Positions 3,181 through 52,021 of a stretch of DNA of 55,421 bases are shown one piece after another. The position numbers and the translations under genes were made by a program. The stretch's first letter is position 1; every line of letters starts with the position of its first letter. The DNA lies in IMG/VR virus record IMGVR_UViG_3300037743_000357, positions 1-55,421 of that record; one strand, 5' to 3'. The notes under the pieces were generated by a model. It saw only the letters and a program-made list of their open reading frames with translations. It was not told the DNA's origin and made no database searches. Origin of the DNA: a virus (lineage: Duplodnaviria; Caudoviricetes).

Positions 3181-3343
3181 CGGCGCCGACGCAAGCGCCG
3201 CACGGATGCAGGGCATGCAGGGGGCGGATCGGGTGGTTTTGGGGGACATTGTGGCGCTATTCTCCTAAGTCATAGCAACCACAACGTTACGTACGAAAGA
3301 TAACTGATATTGTGGGAAAGAAATCTATTTTTTGGCTCTGACC

Positions 3344-3439
3344 GTCCCCACCACCCCTCCCCCCAGACCCCCATTCGCCAGGCCCGTCACATAATAATAC
3401 CCCTGCCCCAGTGTGCGCTGGAAACCGCCTGTTCTGGCT
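3344..3439. repeat. Imperfect ~95-bp direct repeat, copy 1, with G-quadruplex motif on minus strand
   Basis: GTCCCCACCACCCCTCCCCCCAGACCCCC...ATACCCC...CAGTG...CTGGCT; homologous to 3911-4005. Confidence 0.8.
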
Positions 3440-3470
3440 TCCGCGCATGTTGCTGGCATCGGTTCTGATT

Positions 3471-3845
3471 TTAGTGTCCTACGGTGTGGAGGGGATATTT
3501 GCGCCAATGTTTTGCGTTATCGGCCATGGTAATGAGTTCTAGGTTTTCGAGGCGGTTGTCGTGTCTGACCCGATTCTTGTGATTGACGGTGATGAATTTG
3601 CCTTTAGGGGCTGGTGGAGGGGACAGGAATGTATTGGCTACGAGGCGATGGAGTAGGAACCATACCTGGCGTTTATTTCTTGTGATGCCGATGTGTTGGT
3701 ATCCGAGGCGGTCGCGTCTTCCTGAAAGTTCTACGGGTCCTTTGGGTGATGAACGTTGGCACCGGCCCATGTTGGAGATTTGGTGGTTTGGAAAGCCCGG
3801 GATAGGTTTCCACAATTCGCCTGGGATAGGGATGAGGGGTTTCAT
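3471..3845 (-). CDS. NUMOD4 + HNH endonuclease
   Basis: WKPIPGF..QISNMGR (NUMOD4) and HRLVA..F...VNHKNR..DNRLENLE (HNH_3). Confidence 0.92.
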   Translation of the reverse strand: MKPLIPIPGELWKPIPGFPNHQISNMGRCQRSSPKGPVELSGRRDRLGYQHIGITRNKRQVWFLLHRLVANTFLSPPPAPKGKFITVNHKNRVRHDNRLENLELITMADNAKHWRKYPLHTVGH

Positions 3846-3910: not shown

Positions 3911-4005
3911 GTCCCCACCACCCCCGCCCCGAGACCCCGCTCGCGCGCGCCCGCCAGATACATATACCCCCGCCACAGTGCGCCCTGAAAAACGGGTCTC
4001 TGGCT
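3911..4005. repeat. Imperfect ~95-bp direct repeat, copy 2, with G-quadruplex motif on minus strand
   Basis: GTCCCCACCACCCCCGCCCCGAGACCCC...ATACCCC...CAGTG...CTGGCT. Confidence 0.8.
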
Positions 4006-4137: not shown

Positions 4138-4698
4138 TTACTTGGGCTGGTTGTAGAGGTCTTGGCCTGATAGCAGGTCGTATTCGATTTGATTTCCGAA
4201 CACTTCCCAGCCTGGGCGTTTGAGTCGGGAGAACATTTCGAGTTTGGGGGTGTTTGGGTACCATTGTTCTATCCAGTGGCGTACTTGTTCGGGTTTGGCG
4301 CTGTGGCGTCCACGGTGGCAACGGAGCACCGATGGCACGCGCAACGAAGATGGAGGGGACGTGACTCGTCCACGAACCCCGACCAAGAGCAATTCATGCT
4401 GTCCTCGGAACCAGTATCCCATTCCCATCGCCACCTTATCCCACACGGCGCAAGACTTGTAATTAAACCCCCAAGCTGAAATTACCTGAAGCGCCTCTGG
4501 AAGCAGTGGGGCGGTGGCCCACAGGTAGAGGATGCAGTCTTTTTCGGCTGGGACATCCATCGAGCAGATCGCATCAATGGTCATCGTGTCGTATTGATTT
4601 GAGATCGAGCGACTGGAGCCTTCGTAGTCGAGGGAGTAGTTCCATGGGGGATCGGCGTAGATCACCCCAAAGACAGATTTATGAGGTTTTGTGCTCAT
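4138..4698 (-). CDS. MT-A70 family (N6-adenine/N4-cytosine) methyltransferase
   Basis: IYADPPW catalytic motif, LYLWAT, AWGF.YK, GMGYWFRGQHE, HSAKP, LEMFSR...GW...GN. Confidence 0.92.
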   Translation of the reverse strand: MSTKPHKSVFGVIYADPPWNYSLDYEGSSRSISNQYDTMTIDAICSMDVPAEKDCILYLWATAPLLPEALQVISAWGFNYKSCAVWDKVAMGMGYWFRGQHELLLVGVRGRVTSPPSSLRVPSVLRCHRGRHSAKPEQVRHWIEQWYPNTPKLEMFSRLKRPGWEVFGNQIEYDLLSGQDLYNQPK

Positions 4699-31174: not shown

Positions 31175-34100
31175 ATCGGGGCGCACACTACTGGTTGAAG
31201 GGGACACCGAACCCGATCCGAGCGACGTAGATTTTCTCCTCTCCCAGCTTGACCAACCCCAAGCCCCGGCCGCGCCGGATTTAGAACAGCCTCCCGGCCA
31301 GGTCTCCGGCATCATCACATCCGCCACCCAGGGGTTTAAAACCACGCAGCAAGCCATGGACGCCCGCCGTCTGGCCGATACGTCCGGGGGACCGACCATG
31401 CGCCAGGAACGCAGGGCTTTTGTCCAGGCCATGGAAGATCCGCGATACATGGATCTGCTCTCCCGTCGCCCCAATGACCTGGAGGCGTTTACCGAGCAGG
31501 AAGTTGGTCCAGGTTCCATGGCTTCACTGGTTGGTCCTGAATCAAAACTTCAGGATATGCGCCAGGGCGTTGAGATGGATCGCAGGGAAATCGTTGAGCG
31601 CATGGCGGCGAGGGAAAAGGACATCCAAGCCCAATCACTTGCCCCGGGTTATCAGCAATACCGCGAGGCCAAAGGAGTGGATGCGGTCAAAGCGTTCCTT
31701 GCCAATCCCGTTGAAGTCACGCTCAACATCGTGGCCCAAGGGTTGGGTTCCAGTGTTCAGGCATTGTTGGGCGCTGCGGCGGGGGGTGTGGTGGCTGGGC
31801 CGGTTGGAACCGCAGTGGGCGCGGGGACTGGATCTTTCAGTATTGAACACGCCCACGCCATTCTTGAAAGCCTGGCCGAAGAGGGAGTTGATTTGAAAGA
31901 TCCAGACGCGCTTCTGGCGGCGTTCAAGGACACCAATAAACTCGCTCGGGCACGGGAACGCGGCGTCAAACGGGGTATTCCCATTGCCATGTTCGATGCT
32001 TTCAGCGGCGGGGTGGCTGGCAAATTCCTCATGGGCTCTAAAGGGTTCAAGGAGATTGTCAAGAAAGCCGGGCTGGAAACCGCAGTGCAAACCGGCTCCG
32101 GTGCCGCCGGCGAGGCGGTGGCTCAATTGGTGAGTGAGGGCAACGTCAACGCGTGGCGGGACGTGTTCGAAGAAGCCATTGGAGAGCTTGGGCCTGGAGC
32201 CGTGGAAGCCGCAGTCAACGTATTGAGCGCCCGTCAACAATCTGTCCCATCAACCGAAACCCAAACCGAAGGAAGCCAAGATGCCAGCCAAGACCGAACG
32301 ACAGAGGAGATTCATGGCGATGTGCGCCAAGAACCCGAGCAAGTCCAAGAAGCCGTGCCCGCCCAGGAAACTGGCTCGGGAGTTCAGCCACAAGAAGAGG
32401 AAGTCTTAGAATCGCGCATCGTCTCGGAGGAAGAAGCTCCCGAGCTTGAATACATTTCACAGGAGGACGTTGAAGCCTACTTCGACCGGCGTTTTGGCAA
32501 GACCGAAGAGCAACCCGAATCCCCCGATGCTTTGGAAGCCAGGCGTCCTGGTCGATTCACGTTCCCTGATTATGACCAGTTCAAAAAATGGATGGGCGAG
32601 CGTTACGCCGAGCGCGACTTGGATGGGATGAAGCTGGCTTTCGCCGAGGCATCCAACAAGGACAAAGCCAAGTTCGCCAAGGAATTGTTGCGCGGTGCTG
32701 ATGACCATTTGAGGAACTGGATTTATCACATGGCCGCCGGCGCGGATTTGACCGACATCGATCCGCCCGTCAAGCGAACGACGCCCCGGCCCATGCCTGA
32801 CGGCTCGACGCAACCCGTGGAGACACCTGCGCAACAGCCGCCGGGGCCACCGCCCAAACCGCCCCCGCAGAATGTCCCGCAGCATCGGCCATTCAACATC
32901 ACGGCCATGGTTCAACTGCTTCGGCGGCACGCCAAATTCCCCACGGTCAACGAAAGGTTGGTTACGGCTTACGGGCGATACATGACCAAAGCCCAGCAGA
33001 TCGAGTTGAAGGGGCGCCTGATGTGGGACCAAAAACTGGCGTCCCGTATGTTGGGCCATGAGATCGGGCATTGGATCGATCTGGCCATTGAGGCAACCGG
33101 ACGGGGCAAAGACTTCGCGCAAAGGTTGAAACCGATGTTCGATTTCAAGAAGGACATCGCGGGCGCCGCGCATTTGAAGAATCAGGCCAAGGCACTTTCA
33201 GCGGAGTGGCGCGGTCCGTTCAGTCCCAATGATCGGTATCGGAACAGGTCCCAAGAACTGTTGGCAGATTTTCTATCGGCGATGTTCAATGATCCTGATT
33301 GGGTGAATCAGAATTACCCCGAGTTGTTTGATGCCTTCCAGGATTTGCGCGATGCCAAGCCGGCGTTCAAGAGCGCCTACCGTGAAGTGGAAACTTGGTT
33401 GCAGGGCGAAACGATGGCCCAAGAATTGATCGATCAGGACAAGGACGCTGTGGTTCGAACGCACGACATAATCATGGAAGACCGCACTGCCGAAACTTCC
33501 TCGATCAAGAACCGGCTCTTGGGTGCTTTGATGACGGTGTGGAACCGGGCCTTCGAAGTGGAAGGGCGCCCTCGCGAGATAGGCAAAAGCCTGACCGAAC
33601 AATTGGAGTTTTCCTACACATGGGCGGCCAATCAAATGTCGGTGTGGTTCGACGATTACTTGCGCAATGTCCAACCGCTCATTGACAAGGTTTCCGCCGA
33701 TCCGGTCCAAGCCCAAGCCGCTCTTCTTTCCTATACGAAGGCGCGACGCGTGATTGGAGAACGGCGCGCGGCGGGGGTGTGGATTGAGGAGAACCCGGAG
33801 GATGCGCGTTCGCTTTTGCGTTTGATCGTCGCGGTGGACCCCGCACTTAACGACAAATATATCGACGCAGTGGAAAGCGCTGAACCGGATCAGATTTACG
33901 ATTTGAGCGCGGTCATCCTGCGCGAGATCCATGACCAAGGAGAAGCGTTGGTCAACCGGGTGACGCGTGAGATCGACAATGCCGATTTGGGTGTCTCCGG
34001 TCAGTCGTTCATGGTGGCGTTCAACGTCCGAGGCAAACTTCTCAATCCCCAAGGGTTGACCCCCGAGACCGCGCAATCCGTGTTGAACCAGTTGCGGGAA

Positions 34101-45455: not shown

Positions 45456-45721
45456 GCGACTATTACGAAAAATATCTTAAGGGCGCATTCGAGCGCGGAT
45501 TAAAGGAAAACGGTAGGCTGCATATGAGGCGTCGAGAACGTGTTGGACGAAAGGGACTCGTTCACGCTATCGCCCATTGCATGGATTGTGACTGGGAATG
45601 TCAAGACTACCTAATGGTGCAACGCAAAGCCGCCTACCACGCGAAAACAAAAGGCCACCGTGTCAGCGCGGAACTCGGATATGAAATCACGTATTCGCCT
45701 ATCGAGAAAGGTAAGCGATGA
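45452..45721 (+). CDS. Small C2H2-like zinc-finger protein
   Basis: CMDC.W...H...GH. Confidence 0.65.
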   Translation: MSDYYEKYLKGAFERGLKENGRLHMRRRERVGRKGLVHAIAHCMDCDWECQDYLMVQRKAAYHAKTKGHRVSAELGYEITYSPIEKGKR

Positions 45722-45987
45722 GTGGCAATAGCGACAAAGTTGTTCGGCGGATGGACGTGGGAATCGTCCATAGAATGGTCAGAGAAATCGACCATCAATC
45801 TACGGGCTATCTGTTCCGCGTAGCGCGGAAGAAAGCAAAACTCTCGCTCCGCGAAGTGGCGCGTAGACTAAAACTGTCTGCGCCGTTTGTGTCTGATTTG
45901 GAGCTTGGACGGCGTAACTGGACGGAGGAAATGGCCGAGCGATACATTGACATCCTCTGCCCACCGAACACGAAAGGTAAGCGATGA
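45718..45987 (+). CDS. XRE-family HTH protein
   Basis: R....LSLREVARRL.LSAPFVSDLE.GRR. Confidence 0.85.
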   Translation: MSGNSDKVVRRMDVGIVHRMVREIDHQSTGYLFRVARKKAKLSLREVARRLKLSAPFVSDLELGRRNWTEEMAERYIDILCPPNTKGKR

Positions 45988-46235
45988 GTGAAGTCTATGT
46001 CTATTTCCCGTGCCAATGGAATTCGTTCAAGTGTGACATTTGGCTCTTCGCTCACCCATTACCATCTCCACTCAGATGGTGGACTGAGGAAGATGAATTG
46101 TTTCAAAGGATGTTCCAAAAACCAGGCAGGTTGAAAGCCATGGAATCAGTTTCGGACACTCGCCCCATACGCGGGCTCGGTGCCGCCGGCGCACACACGC
46201 AAGGCCGCGTTCCGGGAGCGGCCAGCCGGCATTGA
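45984..46235 (+). CDS. Hypothetical protein
   Basis: ATGA-coupled. Confidence 0.45.
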   Translation: MSEVYVYFPCQWNSFKCDIWLFAHPLPSPLRWWTEEDELFQRMFQKPGRLKAMESVSDTRPIRGLGAAGAHTQGRVPGAASRH

Positions 46236-47819: not shown

Positions 47820-48301
47820 AACTATCGATCAACAAACTTCTCCTTGGCGGCAACCTGACTCGGGACCCCGAACTGCGCGTCACGTCCGACGGCACATACA
47901 TCTGCACGGGCTCCTTGGCGGTCAACAAGAAGTGGAAGGGCAAGGACGGCCAGATGCGGGAGAAAGTTTCCTTCATCGAATTTTCGATGTTCGGTCGGAG
48001 CGGTGAAGTTGTGGCGGAGTATTTCCGCAAGGGCGATCCGATCTTGTTGGACGGGGAGTTGCAGATGGATGAATGGGAGGACAAGCAGAGCGGGGAGCGC
48101 AAGACCAAGCTGAAGATGCTGGCCAACAGTTTCAGTTTCTGCGGCCCCACGGCCAAGGCCGGCGAGCAGAAGCAAAAGAGCGTGGCGCACCAGGAAACAC
48201 CGGGGGAACGGGTTCGCCGTGCCGGGCGCACGGAAGCGGCGGTGAGCGCGGGGGCGGCGAAGAAGTGGGAGGATGAAGAAGAAAATCAGTGTCCATTCTG
48301 A
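47816..48301 (+). CDS. ssb: Single-stranded DNA-binding protein
   Basis: INK..L.GNLTRDPELR, LAVN, FG...E...Y.RKG, G.L....WEDK.G; acidic tail ending PF. Confidence 0.95.
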   Translation: MKLSINKLLLGGNLTRDPELRVTSDGTYICTGSLAVNKKWKGKDGQMREKVSFIEFSMFGRSGEVVAEYFRKGDPILLDGELQMDEWEDKQSGERKTKLKMLANSFSFCGPTAKAGEQKQKSVAHQETPGERVRRAGRTEAAVSAGAAKKWEDEEENQCPF

Positions 48302-48303
48302 TC

Positions 48304-48786
48304 ATGAAAAAATGCTTTGAATGTCACCGGCAACTGCCACGCGCCGAATTTTATGATCATCATCGGATGGCTGACGGCAAGTTGGGCAAGTGCAAAGTGT
48401 GTGTTAAAAAAGGTGTGGCCGCGCGATACAAAGAAAAACAGAATGATCCTGTTTGGCTGGAAAAGGAACGCGCTAGGTGCCGATTAAAATCGAAACTGGC
48501 CAAATTAAATGGCCAAACCATGAAGCCTTCAATTGAGCCTGGGCGCAAATGGCGGAAGAGGAATAAAGTCAAAGTTAGAGTATGGAATACAGTCCAAAAA
48601 GCGCTGGTAAACGGCAAAATAAAATCCAAAAAGACATGCCAAGATTGCGGGTCTGCTGGGAAACTGCATAAGCATCATGAAGACTATTCTAAGCCGTTGA
48701 GTGTGGAGTGGCTTTGCCCAGCATGTCATGGGAAGCGTCATCGAAAAGCTTTTGGTGAACCGATCAAACCGCGCTTGATTCCCTGA
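48304..48786 (+). CDS. HNH-type zinc-finger nuclease-like protein
   Basis: KKC..C...FY...DG....CK.C and C..CG....HH.DYSKPL.VEWLC..CH. Confidence 0.85.
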   Translation: MKKCFECHRQLPRAEFYDHHRMADGKLGKCKVCVKKGVAARYKEKQNDPVWLEKERARCRLKSKLAKLNGQTMKPSIEPGRKWRKRNKVKVRVWNTVQKALVNGKIKSKKTCQDCGSAGKLHKHHEDYSKPLSVEWLCPACHGKRHRKAFGEPIKPRLIP

Positions 48787-49112
48787 TGCCCGTTCCCCAG
48801 TCATTCAAGTTGTCCCTGCCTTCCGGCGTGCGGCCCATTGCCCGGGAGCCGTTGCGTTTCTGGGTGGTGTCCCGGTCCCGCGGCAAGGTGGAACATCTGG
48901 TGGATCTGGAAGAGAACGGGTTCAATGGGAAGTGCTCATGCGAACTTTACCAATTCAAAATCGCGCCCCGCCTTCGGGAAGAGCGAACCAGCCGGGAAAC
49001 ATCGATGCGGCTTCGGTGCTGGCACATTCGGCGGGCGATGTTTTACTTGGCCGAACTGACGATGCGCACGATGGCCAACAAAGATCCCCGGGCACGGAGG
49101 GATCAGGGATGA
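48786..49112 (+). CDS. SWIM zinc-finger protein
   Basis: CSC...CWHI (CxC-n-CxH). Confidence 0.75.
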   Translation: MPVPQSFKLSLPSGVRPIAREPLRFWVVSRSRGKVEHLVDLEENGFNGKCSCELYQFKIAPRLREERTSRETSMRLRCWHIRRAMFYLAELTMRTMANKDPRARRDQG

Positions 49113-49243
49113 ATTTTCGACTCCAAAGGCATTTGATTCATGATAAGCAACTTCTGGACCCCTTATCCTGTCTCTAACCACAGTTCGTATTATAGGCTGC
49201 GCCTGTCGCGTGGCCGGTGTCTTTGGAGTCGTTTTTTAATTTG

Positions 49244-49645
49244 ATGAACCGTAAAGCCCCATGGACAACGATGCCCGGCGCTCGGGTGCGTGAGCCGAAG
49301 ACCAAGCCCAAGTGGGTTCAGCCCTTCTCGGCGGACCGGCGCCTGATCATGGACAAGCTTTACCAGCCCCGGCGCGTGCGTTGGCTGGCCCGCAACACGG
49401 TCTGCGCTGTGACGGGCGCCCGGGCCACTGACGTTCATCATGTCCGTGGCAGGGCCGGAACGCTCCTGATCGATGAACGGTTTTGGGTGCCGGTAAGCCG
49501 GGCAGGGCATCGTTGGATCGAGGACAACAAAGAACTGGCACGGAAAGCGGGGCTCTTGTGCGGGCGCGGGCAGTGGAACGTAGCGCCCAAGGACGCGGTG
49601 AGCGCGAAACTGGGGTGGATGATTCGGGAGGTTGTGCATGGCTAA
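49244..49645 (+). CDS. HNH-like protein
   Basis: ATDVHH.RGR...W..V.R.GH.WI; start uncertain. Confidence 0.7.
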   Translation: MNRKAPWTTMPGARVREPKTKPKWVQPFSADRRLIMDKLYQPRRVRWLARNTVCAVTGARATDVHHVRGRAGTLLIDERFWVPVSRAGHRWIEDNKELARKAGLLCGRGQWNVAPKDAVSAKLGWMIREVVHG

Positions 49646-49814
49646 AACCAAACCCAGGAAAGTCTTTGGTCGGATCAAGCGCAACATCGACGGCCATGAT
49701 TACGTGCTGGAACTGACCCGGGACGGGCTGCGGGTGAGGCGCAAGTGGAGCCGGGAGCCGGTGATGATCGGGTTTGAAAGTTTGACCAGGTGGGCGGATG
49801 GGAGGTTTTTGTGA
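49638..49814 (+). CDS. Hypothetical protein
   Basis: Overlap-coupled small ORF. Confidence 0.55.
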   Translation: MAKTKPRKVFGRIKRNIDGHDYVLELTRDGLRVRRKWSREPVMIGFESLTRWADGRFL

Positions 49815-50053
49815 GTGAGAAAAACGAGACCACGGAGGCCGGTTCGAGTGCGACGGTTGGTTCGGCGGCGGCGGGAACATGCCTGACGTGCGACTACTGG
49901 ACGCAGCGCACTGCCGACGCAACTGGTGGAATGCAAGGATGGTGTGACCTGTTCGTGAAGCGCACCCATGCGGACCACGGTCAGAAATGCACAAGATGGA
50001 CGCCGATAGAGCCGCCGAACGACCCAAGCTCAGCCACACGGCTGGGCGAATAA
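49811..50053 (+). CDS. Cys-rich cassette gene (CxxC..W...C...C..W)
   Basis: Core bounded by attC-like R boxes at 49860 and 50014. Confidence 0.65.
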   Translation: MSEKNETTEAGSSATVGSAAAGTCLTCDYWTQRTADATGGMQGWCDLFVKRTHADHGQKCTRWTPIEPPNDPSSATRLGE

Positions 50054-50328
50054 CGCAAAAGGAACGAAATGAGCAAAACATCCAAGAAATCAAAACGCCG
50101 CGCGAAGCCAACCAGCGAAGCCGTGTTGGCTGGAGCGCGTGGTTCGGCGCACTGGGCACAATGCTACCTGGAGCACGCCGCGCGGGAAACAGCGTGGGCT
50201 GCGCAGAGCGCGAAGGAATGCAACTACAGCGCCGCTCACGATGCGGTGGTGCGGCGGGGAGTGTGGCTACATGCAGCCCTGCTCGCTCAAGAGAAAAGTG
50301 CGCCGAACACTGAGGCCACCGACCGGCC
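49837..50328 (-). mobile_element. Two-cassette attC-like array without integrase
   Basis: Full attC-like site 50014-50148 plus mutually complementary half-sites 49837-49866 and 50302-50328. Confidence 0.7.
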
Positions 50329-50332
50329 CTAA
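50069..50332 (+). CDS. Cassette gene, hypothetical
   Basis: Starts in attC loop and ends just past the next half-site. Confidence 0.55.
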   Translation: MSKTSKKSKRRAKPTSEAVLAGARGSAHWAQCYLEHAARETAWAAQSAKECNYSAAHDAVVRRGVWLHAALLAQEKSAPNTEATDRP

Positions 50333-50337
50333 GATAA

Positions 50338-50889
50338 ATGAAGCGAACCAAACTCACGGATGGCCGTGCCTTCCAGGACGAACTGGTGGCGACGTGCAAG
50401 CAGTATCAAGCTCAGGGCGTTCTGCGCATGCGCAAGGTCGATCCCCCCGTGCGCATCATGGGTGGGGGTGCCGGGCGGCAAGTCATGTTCCTTGATAATC
50501 CCTTTCCCGACTTCATCGGGGCATGGACGGAGCGGGGCGGGCGCATGGTGGCATTCGAAGCCAAGTCCACCAAAGACCCCAAGCTGCCGGTGGGCGGGAC
50601 GGGCGGTGTCAATGAAACTCAACTGCGAAACTTGCAGCACTGGCGGGCTGCGGGCGCTTTTACGTTCATTCTGTGGCAGTGGCGAGGTCATGGCGTGGTC
50701 ATGATCGGGTTGGAGGCTCTTCGAGTTAGGCTCAAGGGCAAGCATATCAAATGGGGGGATTGGCAGGACTGCCCAGTGCCGCAGGGCAAAGGTTTTGTGT
50801 TGCACGATTTCCTTGCGTGGATGAGACACTATCCCCATGACTCCCCTGTTCCACGATTTCCTTTCTTGGATGAGTCTTTATCCCCATGA
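50338..50889 (+). CDS. recU: RecU-like Holliday junction resolvase
   Basis: G..F...L...C..Y, KVD.P, PDFIG, VAFEAKST, QL..L. Confidence 0.85.
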   Translation: MKRTKLTDGRAFQDELVATCKQYQAQGVLRMRKVDPPVRIMGGGAGRQVMFLDNPFPDFIGAWTERGGRMVAFEAKSTKDPKLPVGGTGGVNETQLRNLQHWRAAGAFTFILWQWRGHGVVMIGLEALRVRLKGKHIKWGDWQDCPVPQGKGFVLHDFLAWMRHYPHDSPVPRFPFLDESLSP

Positions 50890-51164
50890 CCCCTAAACAC
50901 TGGCGCCGTGTGCGCATCGTGCCGGACGGTCGCCGGTTCAAGCTCGTTACCTACTACGCCTTCATCGATCTGACCGACGGTGATGCCCGGGCGCTGGGAT
51001 TCGAGCGCGCCAAAGACTTCCGACAACTGACCAAGGCGCGGGCGCTCGAAGTGGGGGATGAAGTCGAGAAGGCTTTGGCCGATGGTGAACCGCGCAAACG
51101 CCTCAAGATGCACGAAATAAATGTTTTGCAAAATACCGAGGCAAAATTTACATTGCGGGCATGA
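50886..51164 (+). CDS. Hypothetical protein
   Basis: ATGA-coupled at both ends. Confidence 0.6.
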   Translation: MTPKHWRRVRIVPDGRRFKLVTYYAFIDLTDGDARALGFERAKDFRQLTKARALEVGDEVEKALADGEPRKRLKMHEINVLQNTEAKFTLRA

Positions 51165-51424
51165 CGTTGAAAGATCCGATGAAACATTTGTGCCGGGTGC
51201 GCAAATACATGAGCGCGGCGGAGATTGCACGGAGGTTGACGGTGATGACGGGCAGTCCGGTCCATCGGGTGCAGGTTTCCCAGTGGTTGCACCCGCGCAA
51301 GGAGCGGCGGTGCGAGCCGCGGCTCAAGGTGGCGTTGGCGCTTTTGAGCATGCTGGCCAAGGAAGAGGGTTTTTTCGTGGTCGATGACAAGGGGATTCAT
51401 TCGGAGACGCCAAAGAAGCGGTAG
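51161..51424 (+). CDS. HTH-like protein
   Basis: SAAEIARRL...QVSQWL; stop codon lies inside the left TIR. Confidence 0.65.
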   Translation: MTLKDPMKHLCRVRKYMSAAEIARRLTVMTGSPVHRVQVSQWLHPRKERRCEPRLKVALALLSMLAKEEGFFVVDDKGIHSETPKKR

Positions 51425-51509
51425 TGTCCTAATTTGACGGGCGGTAAATTTTTCACGACTTGACATATATGCGATAATTATCCCGTGCCGACGAATGAAA
51501 CAGAATCAT

Positions 51510-51869
51510 CTACTGCAATAAGAAGCGGCTCGGTACGTCCCAAGGTGGCAATTGAATCACTGCCTGCCGTCCTCCTAATTCCAATTGGGCGCTCCCCTCA
51601 TAAACATCTCGCGATAGTGGTTCAAGCAATAGGTAATCCGCTTGAGGATGACCGCCGATGGTATAACTCAGGAATCCGTCCAGACATATTGCTAGCCTTG
51701 GTCGGCTCATGCCTATGTCTGCTCTGTCGAGCCATTTGGGGACTAGCCATTTCCTCTCTTCATAATCGACGGTATCGACAAGAAGCTGTGTAGACATCGG
51801 TTCACCAGCAAACATTACCAAGGTCTTCTTAATTTTCACTGGTTTGTTTTTCTTTTGTGCATGGTTCAA
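51510..51869 (-). CDS. Hypothetical cargo protein
   Basis: 119 aa inside the element. Confidence 0.6.
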   Translation of the reverse strand: MNHAQKKNKPVKIKKTLVMFAGEPMSTQLLVDTVDYEERKWLVPKWLDRADIGMSRPRLAICLDGFLSYTIGGHPQADYLLLEPLSRDVYEGSAQLELGGRQAVIQLPPWDVPSRFLLQ

Positions 51870-52021
51870 TTCTTCTGGCTCTCGCGGACTTCATGTGCAA
51901 TCGCAACCTCCTTCTTTGCAGTTTCAAGATTGTTTGACATAACGTTTCTTTCTTTCGGCTGGACTATTCGTGCCACAGATATTAAGTTGCGTCAACATAA
52001 TTGTGGCACAATAATAAAACT

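Follow-up and report, generated by a model that had tools for sequence, protein, structure and literature searches.

The stretch of DNA analysed here, which we call the window, is a viral record of 55,421 bases with a completeness rating of 99%. The genes around 49632-50889 are all located on the + strand and comprise the following.

49632-49814, + strand: open reading frame of 60 aa.
49811-50053, + strand: gene 1, 80 aa, with a GTG start at 49811, a frame open from 49790 and four Cys residues.
50069-50332, + strand: gene 2, 87 aa, a small helical protein belonging to a real family (17 relatives and itself).
50338-50889, + strand: RecU-like Holliday junction resolvase, a phage backbone gene (PF03838, 29.2 bits; phrog_843, 5e-17).

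The resolvase is 72% identical to that of the syntenic locus L002, and it is here that the similarity of the window to L002 resumes. Gene 1 had no family match in the protein-family search, and the searches for relatives of gene 1 in viral contigs and of gene 2 in genome contigs found none. The comparison of 48200-51500 with 50,697 phage records by blastn gave no match, while a promoter and terminator scan of 48000-52000 returned counts at the shuffle level and nothing at the site described below. When sequencing runs were searched, the region was found in three DNA runs, with a small share in each, and in no RNA run. For a tyrosine recombinase, PF00589 produced 0 matches across the whole 55,421-base record, in agreement with the original prediction of a phage without an integrase. 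An antisense open reading frame of 350 aa (49347-50399, - strand) also covers the entire region, and since the third-position variation relative to L006, a locus with a gene-2 relative, tracks the + frame, it is probably not a gene.

Overlapping both small genes is a structure with the anatomy of an integron attC site, for which the + strand is the bottom strand. Its parts are given below, all on the + strand.

50014-50148: complete attC, 135 nt, identified by geometry, shuffles, covariance model and homologous arms.
50014-50020: R' box GCCGAAC.
50021-50027: 5' spacer, 7 nt.
50028-50043: 5' arm.
50044-50118: loop (variable terminal structure), 75 nt.
50119-50136: 3' arm with extrahelical T (50126/27) and G (50132/33).
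50137-50141: 3' spacer, 5 nt.
50142-50148: R'' box GTTCGGC.

The two arms pair over 16 bp and leave two bases unpaired, both in the 3' arm; the R boxes, which carry AAC and GTT, are paired at 7/7, and the stem is paired at 12/12. When positions are counted from the outer R'' end (50148), the extrahelical G at 50133 is position 16 and the extrahelical T at 50126 is position 23, with 6 bp between them. The bounding boxes, the unpaired spacers beside them and the two extrahelical bases had all been proposed beforehand, and re-reading the letters and coordinates found the same. The proposal that the gene ends are complementary also holds, with a perfect 12-bp pair (50142-53/50297-308) and a 10-bp pair inside 49855-69/50011-25.

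In the covered parts of Nivina 2016, an attC bottom strand is described as R' (RYYYAAC), a spacer of 5-6 nt, the L' arm, the loop, the L'' arm, a spacer and R'' (GTTRRRY), with a length of 57-141 nt. According to the same parts, the L'' arm bears an extrahelical G at position 16 and a T at position 23 or 24, 6 bp apart, and the crossover point is at A|C of the bottom-strand AAC (Nivina 2016). The site at 50014-50148 has the complementary 7-bp boxes with AAC and GTT, G16 and T23 at the separation of 6 bp, and a length of 135 nt with the 75-nt loop as its variable terminal structure. It deviates from RYYYAAC by a G at position 4 of R' instead of a pyrimidine, but control attC sites also deviate from this pattern (e.g. 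GCATAAC and TGCTAAC). Its central spacers of 7 and 5 nt are present, the 5' spacer exceeding the defined 5-6 nt. The spacers of 50 control sites are 5-6/5 nt, with one of 4/6, and the 7-nt 5' spacer is found again in the integrase-linked site of L096 and in L104.

The site is embedded in the coding sequence. The stop codon of gene 1 (50051-53) lies just beyond the 5' arm, so that its tail PPNDPSS... is encoded by the R' box, the spacer and the 5' arm. Gene 2 begins at 50069 within the loop, which holds both its purine-rich ribosome site and its start codon, and its residues ..LAGARGSA.. are encoded by the 3' arm, the spacer and the R'' box. The stop codon of gene 2 (50330-32) is found just beyond a further arm at 50314-28. 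The two statements that one open reading frame begins within the attC loop, and that both cross the next arm before stopping, are thus borne out.

We evaluated the site with a rule scanner that represents the attC geometry. On the control set of 80 loci with intI1 or close relatives, its matches upstream of intI numbered 50 on the expected strand and 1 on the wrong one, compared with 1 site in 455 kb downstream of intI on both strands, and it also recovered the aadA1 attC of plasmid R100. In the window the sole match was 50014-50148 on the + strand, with a stem of 12/12. For 150 dinucleotide shuffles (16.6 million strand-bases), 16 loose matches were obtained, 0 of them at 12/12. A covariance model (R1) was built from 34 distinct bacterial attC sites, and a run of such a model on both strands had been suggested as a check. 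It scores 50014-50148 at 33.9 bits with an E-value of 3.9e-7, on the + strand only; the training sites were chosen by the rule scanner, so that this score and the geometry test are not independent, and the calibration is short and rough. In the R100 control, the model gives 65.9 bits on the + strand (aadA1 is on the - strand) against 12.5 bits on the other strand. A point against the attC reading is the modest folding energy, with a DNA z of -2.39 on the + strand and -2.07 on the - strand.

These figures bear on the alternative that the repeats arise by chance or from codon usage in GC-rich coding sequence. The 7-mer R box is fairly common, with 24 copies in the window against 12.75 expected, and by our own estimate a single inverted repeat of 10-12 bp is expected about once per window. 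Against this, an equal site occurred in 0 of the 150 shuffles, the R1 E-value is 3.9e-7 as given above, and homologous sites with compensated stems occur in other contigs. We regard this alternative as already refuted, with practically no probability left to it.

Two weaker R1 matches were also recorded. The second-best in the window (34019-34061, + strand, 17.5 bits, E 0.013) is within an open reading frame of 1752 aa and covers 43 nt with R boxes and spacer only, too short for an attC; it is probably a chance match. The other (114-177, - strand, 12.4 bits, E 0.32) ends in GTTCGGC and is near the contig start and a tRNA-Ile(TAT) at 323-419.

Homologous sites were found in both bacterial and viral sequences. 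In Methyloversatilis universalis, the attC at L087:983-1054 is located next to an intI with 73% identity to IntI1. The spacer of this attC and the first part of each of its arms agree with those of 50014-50148, and its stem differs by a compensated change. In the viral loci L096 (2171-2304) and L104 (1093-1202), the arms nearly match those of the window; L104 carries the exact R boxes, and L096 has 25 identical bases from the 3' arm through R''. A metagenome contig of 1,358 nt (L013) contains a relative of gene 2 followed by two such attC sites, one of which differs from 50014-50148 by several compensated changes in its distal stem. The spacer and arm sequences are common to L087, L096, L104 and L013. 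A degenerate pattern drawn from these attC sites identified 23 stretches in viral contigs, in which R1 detects 84 sites at E<0.01, in arrays of up to 11.

The integron integrase itself is also found among these viruses. With the TIGR02249 cut-off of 265 bits, it was detected in 3 of the 21 searched site-bearing viral contigs (22 in total, that of L104 being left out), as follows.

L102, contig G001 (43.5 kb, 100% complete virus): integron integrase, TIGR02249 347 bits.
L096, contig G007: integron integrase, TIGR02249 275 bits.
L095, contig G011: integron integrase, TIGR02249 341 bits.

The mutual orientation of intI and the attC bottom strands is the classical one in each of these contigs. No integron integrase was found in the contigs of the window, L002 and L006. 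A tblastn search with the small proteins of the window and L013 against 81 bacterial integron and R100 loci gave nothing below E 0.02. Among the viral contigs are proviruses and fragments, in which host DNA may be included. One provirus contig (G020, locus L112) has eight attC sites at about 72% GC with the longer open reading frames on the top strand, which is the classical arrangement; this may be a host chromosomal integron next to the provirus.

The conservation of the structure was examined with 58 sites aligned to R1, an alignment that is fitted to the model and so is biased toward structure: 97% of the stem cells are paired, compared with 27-37% in slid controls. Among the 12 stem pairs, 11 vary on both sides, with 177 compensated cells against 49 in shuffles, and AAC/GTT is invariant in 58/58 sites.

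With the genes on the strand of the hairpin, we also considered that it works at the mRNA level, e.g. in translational coupling or RNA processing, with the attC likeness being secondary. The start codon and the purine-rich ribosome site in the loop fit such an element, as does the location of all local genes on the + strand, and covariation cannot separate RNA from DNA. However, the invariant AAC/GTT and the unpaired bases at 16 and 23, the positions read by integrases, argue against it, together with the homology to bacterial attC, the adjacency to intI and the breakpoints at AAC described below. In addition, the Rfam search of 49400-50800 at E<=1 gave nothing, and the RNA folding z of -1.34 for 49825-50340 is unremarkable. 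We therefore consider an mRNA element very improbable, and a plain translational-coupling hairpin was set aside on the same evidence.

The strand of the genes differs from that of the classical cassette, in which the open reading frame is on the top strand with the attC downstream. Genes 1 and 2 are on the attC bottom strand, and the R100 control, with aadA1 on the - strand and the R1 match on the + strand, confirms the original prediction that the two frames face opposite to classical cassettes. To see how far this extends, we collected the open reading frames of at least 60 aa inside the viral arrays (116 on the bottom strand and 128 on the top strand, L107 being left out as a duplicate of L100) and scanned the 70 longest of each. 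The bottom-strand set matches 4 Pfam families (QueC, DUF3850, PAPS_reduct and Lar) and 20 PHROG families, seven of the 20 PHROG matches coming from two open reading frames, while the 70 longest top-strand frames have 0 Pfam and 0 PHROG matches. Because only the bottom-strand frames match known families (20 PHROG against 0), the reversed orientation is confirmed and is a property of the whole viral attC family. In L102, L096 and L095 the array genes are likewise on the bottom strand, co-directional with intI; those that could be named include genes for an RNA-binding protein and a DNA methyltransferase as well as a PAPS-reductase-like gene. With the genes on this strand, the attC is transcribed and partly translated. 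The attC-encoded peptide LAGARGSA of gene 2 recurs in an unrelated open reading frame of L096, and the tail PPNDPSS of gene 1 also ends an unrelated gene in L104.

A second attC is present in two separated halves, both on the + strand.

49837-49866, + strand: 3' half (L'' arm, 5-nt spacer, R'' GTTCGGC), pairing with 50302-28.
50302-50328, + strand: 5' half (R' GCCGAAC, 5-nt spacer, L' arm), pairing with 49837-66.

The 3' half falls in the N-terminal coding part of gene 1, and the 5' half encodes the final 8 residues of gene 2. The halves, which are 435 nt apart and whose order is inside out, enclose gene 1, the complete attC and gene 2. Their R boxes pair at 7/7 and the stem at 11/12, with one mismatch in the 3-bp L box, and three bases on the upstream arm are unpaired (C 49851, A 49847 and T 49843, at positions 16/20/24). 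The mutual pairing had been predicted, and it is present; the two bulges given for it are replaced by these three unpaired bases and the mismatch. Unpaired bases at positions 16/20/24 are described as a three-base attC variant in the covered parts of Nivina 2016. Among 110,749 positions of the window, only 49837-66 pairs so well with 50302-28.

The complementarity of the outer halves should be read against the viral arrays. There, 83 of 384 half-site pairs that do not belong to one site (22%) pair at 11/12 or better, so the match in the window is no sign of a special event; in the i versus i-2 geometry of these arrays, 9 of 41 pairs reach the same level. From these counts, a two-cassette circle opened in the loop is not needed as the reason for the matching halves. 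The inside-out order by itself fits such an opened circle and a piece of a longer array joined at gene boundaries equally. The window and L002 cease to be similar at about 49815 and are similar again from about 50335, which places both junctions within loop sequence.

The locus had been announced as an attC-like cassette array. Its attC character is upheld by geometry, model and homology; the array is not, as there are one complete site and one split site. IntegronFinder assigns a CALIN to at least two close attC sites without intI; the window has no intI, but it has fewer than the two sites. A complete integron, with intI adjoining the array, is likewise not what is found.

If a bottom-strand cassette is taken to begin with the C of an AAC and to end with the AA of the subsequent AAC, the crossover rule predicts the following unit.

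50020-50307, + strand: predicted cassette unit, 288 nt, with the attC followed by the body of gene 2 (crossover rule; breakpoints at 50308 and 50011/13).

Related sequences show where similarity to the window is lost. Contigs of two sediment runs from two studies, X1 (50026-50308) and X2 (50115-50308), match the window exactly as far as 50308 (C of the AAC in R'), beyond which their sequence is unrelated to it. These contigs are short and shallow (depth 7.0 and 4.6), they were compared at 85% likeness, and the break is also close to the end of the conserved protein core. Further short contigs of X1 start to match the window at 50011/50013. The continuation of X1 resembles the 5' half of a different attC type, which is complete in L108, and would be what another downstream cassette looks like. 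A similar pattern is observed in the proteins. The gene-2 proteins of the window, L006 and P0002-P0005 share their sequence up to ..SAPN/..SVTN, whose Asn is an AAC codon, and then have differing tails, and the gene 1 homolog P0019 (76% identical) diverges after ..NDP. In the syntenic L002, gene 1 has a distant analogue (24% identity, E 0.003) and gene 2 is absent. Gene turnover at the crossover was the test put forward with the original prediction, and it is seen in both the contigs and the protein tails. The AAC breakpoints suggest cassette turnover, as good but indirect evidence from sequence comparison.

The distant gene-2 relatives L009-L012 have no flanking repeats, and the link with attC is therefore limited to one clade. 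Transposon-like terminal repeats around gene 2 were also considered and rejected: the 12-bp repeat is the R box plus 5 bp, and it is missing in the distant relatives.

Some further observations concern the same accessory genes and their relatives. In L006, a direct repeat of about 28 nt (about 3975-4005 and 4225-4255) is found on either side of the gene-2 relative and covers the region of the ribosome site as well as the next gene's start codon. L002 has an extra Cys-rich open reading frame of 133 aa (3185-3586) between the homologs of window 49217-49645 and 49632-49814, a further difference in gene content in the same accessory region. Elsewhere in the window, a direct repeat of 17-19 bp borders an XRE-type HTH gene (45718-45987) on both sides, at 45706-45748 and 45962-45990, with 2 exact copies against 0.13 expected. 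This repeat matches the spacer and L' arm of the attC type that is complete in L108 (1617-1729). In the XRE gene, GTTCGGC is found 24 nt downstream of the start codon and ACCGAAC ahead of the stop codon, and the homolog of this gene in L104 (58%) ends in a complete attC. The two repeat regions look like further, degraded cassette remnants.

From the anatomy of the site, its model score, its homology to integrase-linked attC sites, its strand, the covariation and the AAC breakpoints, we conclude that 50014-50148 is probably a true integron-type attC, and that a second one is split between 49837-66 and 50302-28, the two sites bounding two cassette-derived accessory genes. The strongest competitor accepts the descent of the site and denies its use. 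Here the attC would be a fossil, captured once from a phage or bacterial array, no longer recombined and kept as protein-coding sequence. The missing integrase in a 99%-complete record agrees with this, and so do the split second site, the other degraded remnants (45706-48 and 45962-90) and L006, which retains merely a decayed 3' half of the attC. On the other hand, the inner site is undamaged, with the stem at 12/12, the R boxes at 7/7 and both extrahelical bases, and near relatives differ in their neighbours at AAC, which indicates that exchange is recent in the lineage. A fossil is thus rather unlikely in our judgement, though it is the alternative that we take most seriously. That IntI acts on 50014-50148, and that exchange continues in this phage, is inference.

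In this reading the cassettes are mirror images of the classical ones, with the gene on the attC bottom strand and the attC at the 5' end of the gene. The hairpin loop carries the ribosome site and start codon, the 3' arm and R'' are translated as an N-terminal tail, and the reading frame closes in or just after the R' box of the next site. For a functional site, we propose the following mechanism. The attC would fold from single-stranded DNA of the + strand, and an integron integrase, guided by the extrahelical bases, would bind the R and L boxes and cut within AAC, the predicted cuts separating A 50019 from C 50020 and 50307 from 50308. The intact site could be cleaved by an IntI acting in trans, from the host or a co-resident phage, and exchange with another attC or an attI would excise or replace the 288-nt gene-2 unit. 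The original prediction placed this IntI in the host; its donor need not be the host, because related phages carry their own intI (3 of 21 contigs). Such units probably circulate among related phages, some of them with long arrays and their own integron integrase. The segment in the window would most likely have come from a longer array or a two-cassette circle and been joined to the backbone at gene boundaries; since attC loops contain these boundaries, a half-site is left at each end.

A broader reading is that there is a phage lineage with mirror-image integrons, having bottom-strand cassettes, co-directional intI, start codons in loops and translated arms, of which the phage in the window is an exchanging member without an integrase. 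We see the chances for and against this reading as evenly balanced. With the genes on the bottom strand, phage transcription would express the cassettes, and the displaced non-template strand would be the recombinogenic one. Genes for a DNA methyltransferase and for Lar-like restriction alleviation are among the cargo of the related arrays, as are QueC and PAPS-reductase-like genes, and some of this cargo looks like counter-defence functions. If the reading is true, small accessory genes of phages would have a site-specific route for their mosaic turnover, and attC sites would be shown to survive inside coding sequence. It would also mean that standard integron finders under-report such elements, because they expect top-strand cassette open reading frames and at least two sites. 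The 135-nt site and the 288-nt unit, with their predicted cut points, make a directly testable case.

Integrons are known as bacterial gene-capture devices, and in sedentary chromosomal integrons reverse-oriented cassettes, such as those with toxin-antitoxin genes, are exceptions in classical arrays and have their own promoters. Phage-borne attC clusters were first reported in 2023 (Qi et al. 2023, Front Microbiol, PMC9892861). According to the parts of that paper covered here, a screen of 10,705 phage genomes gave 3 integrons and 17 attC clusters lacking an integrase, besides one integrase with no cassettes; IntI1 recombined 5 of 6 tested phage attC sites, and the clusters were proposed as a route to gain cassettes (PMC9892861). 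An attC in a phage without an integrase has therefore already been published (Qi 2023), and the window resembles these CALINs in having attC in a phage genome without a nearby intI. In contrast to them, it has one complete and one split site, which is below the two-site rule. The window also has bottom-strand genes, start codons in the loop and frames running through the arms, none of which appears in the covered parts of Qi 2023 (PMC9892861), where two of the arrays are called 'most typical of bacterial arrays'. In the part of the literature covered here, neither whole bottom-strand-gene arrays nor attC embedded in coding sequence are described.

The chromosomal class-1-like attC of Betaproteobacteria (L087 being an example) agrees with that of the window in the order of its boxes, and the two have spacer and arm sequence in common. 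The bottom strand of bacterial arrays is non-coding, as in the R100 control, whereas it is coding in the window. The phage-borne integrons L102, L096 and L095 share with the window the attC subfamily, the bottom-strand genes and, in L096, the peptide LAGARGSA; they have intI and up to 11 sites, while the window has neither an integrase nor a long array. What it has in common with the reverse-oriented sedentary cassettes is a gene orientation opposite to the usual direction of the array. Those are exceptions, whereas in the viral family to which the window belongs the reversal extends to entire arrays, and the coding sequence takes in the attC.
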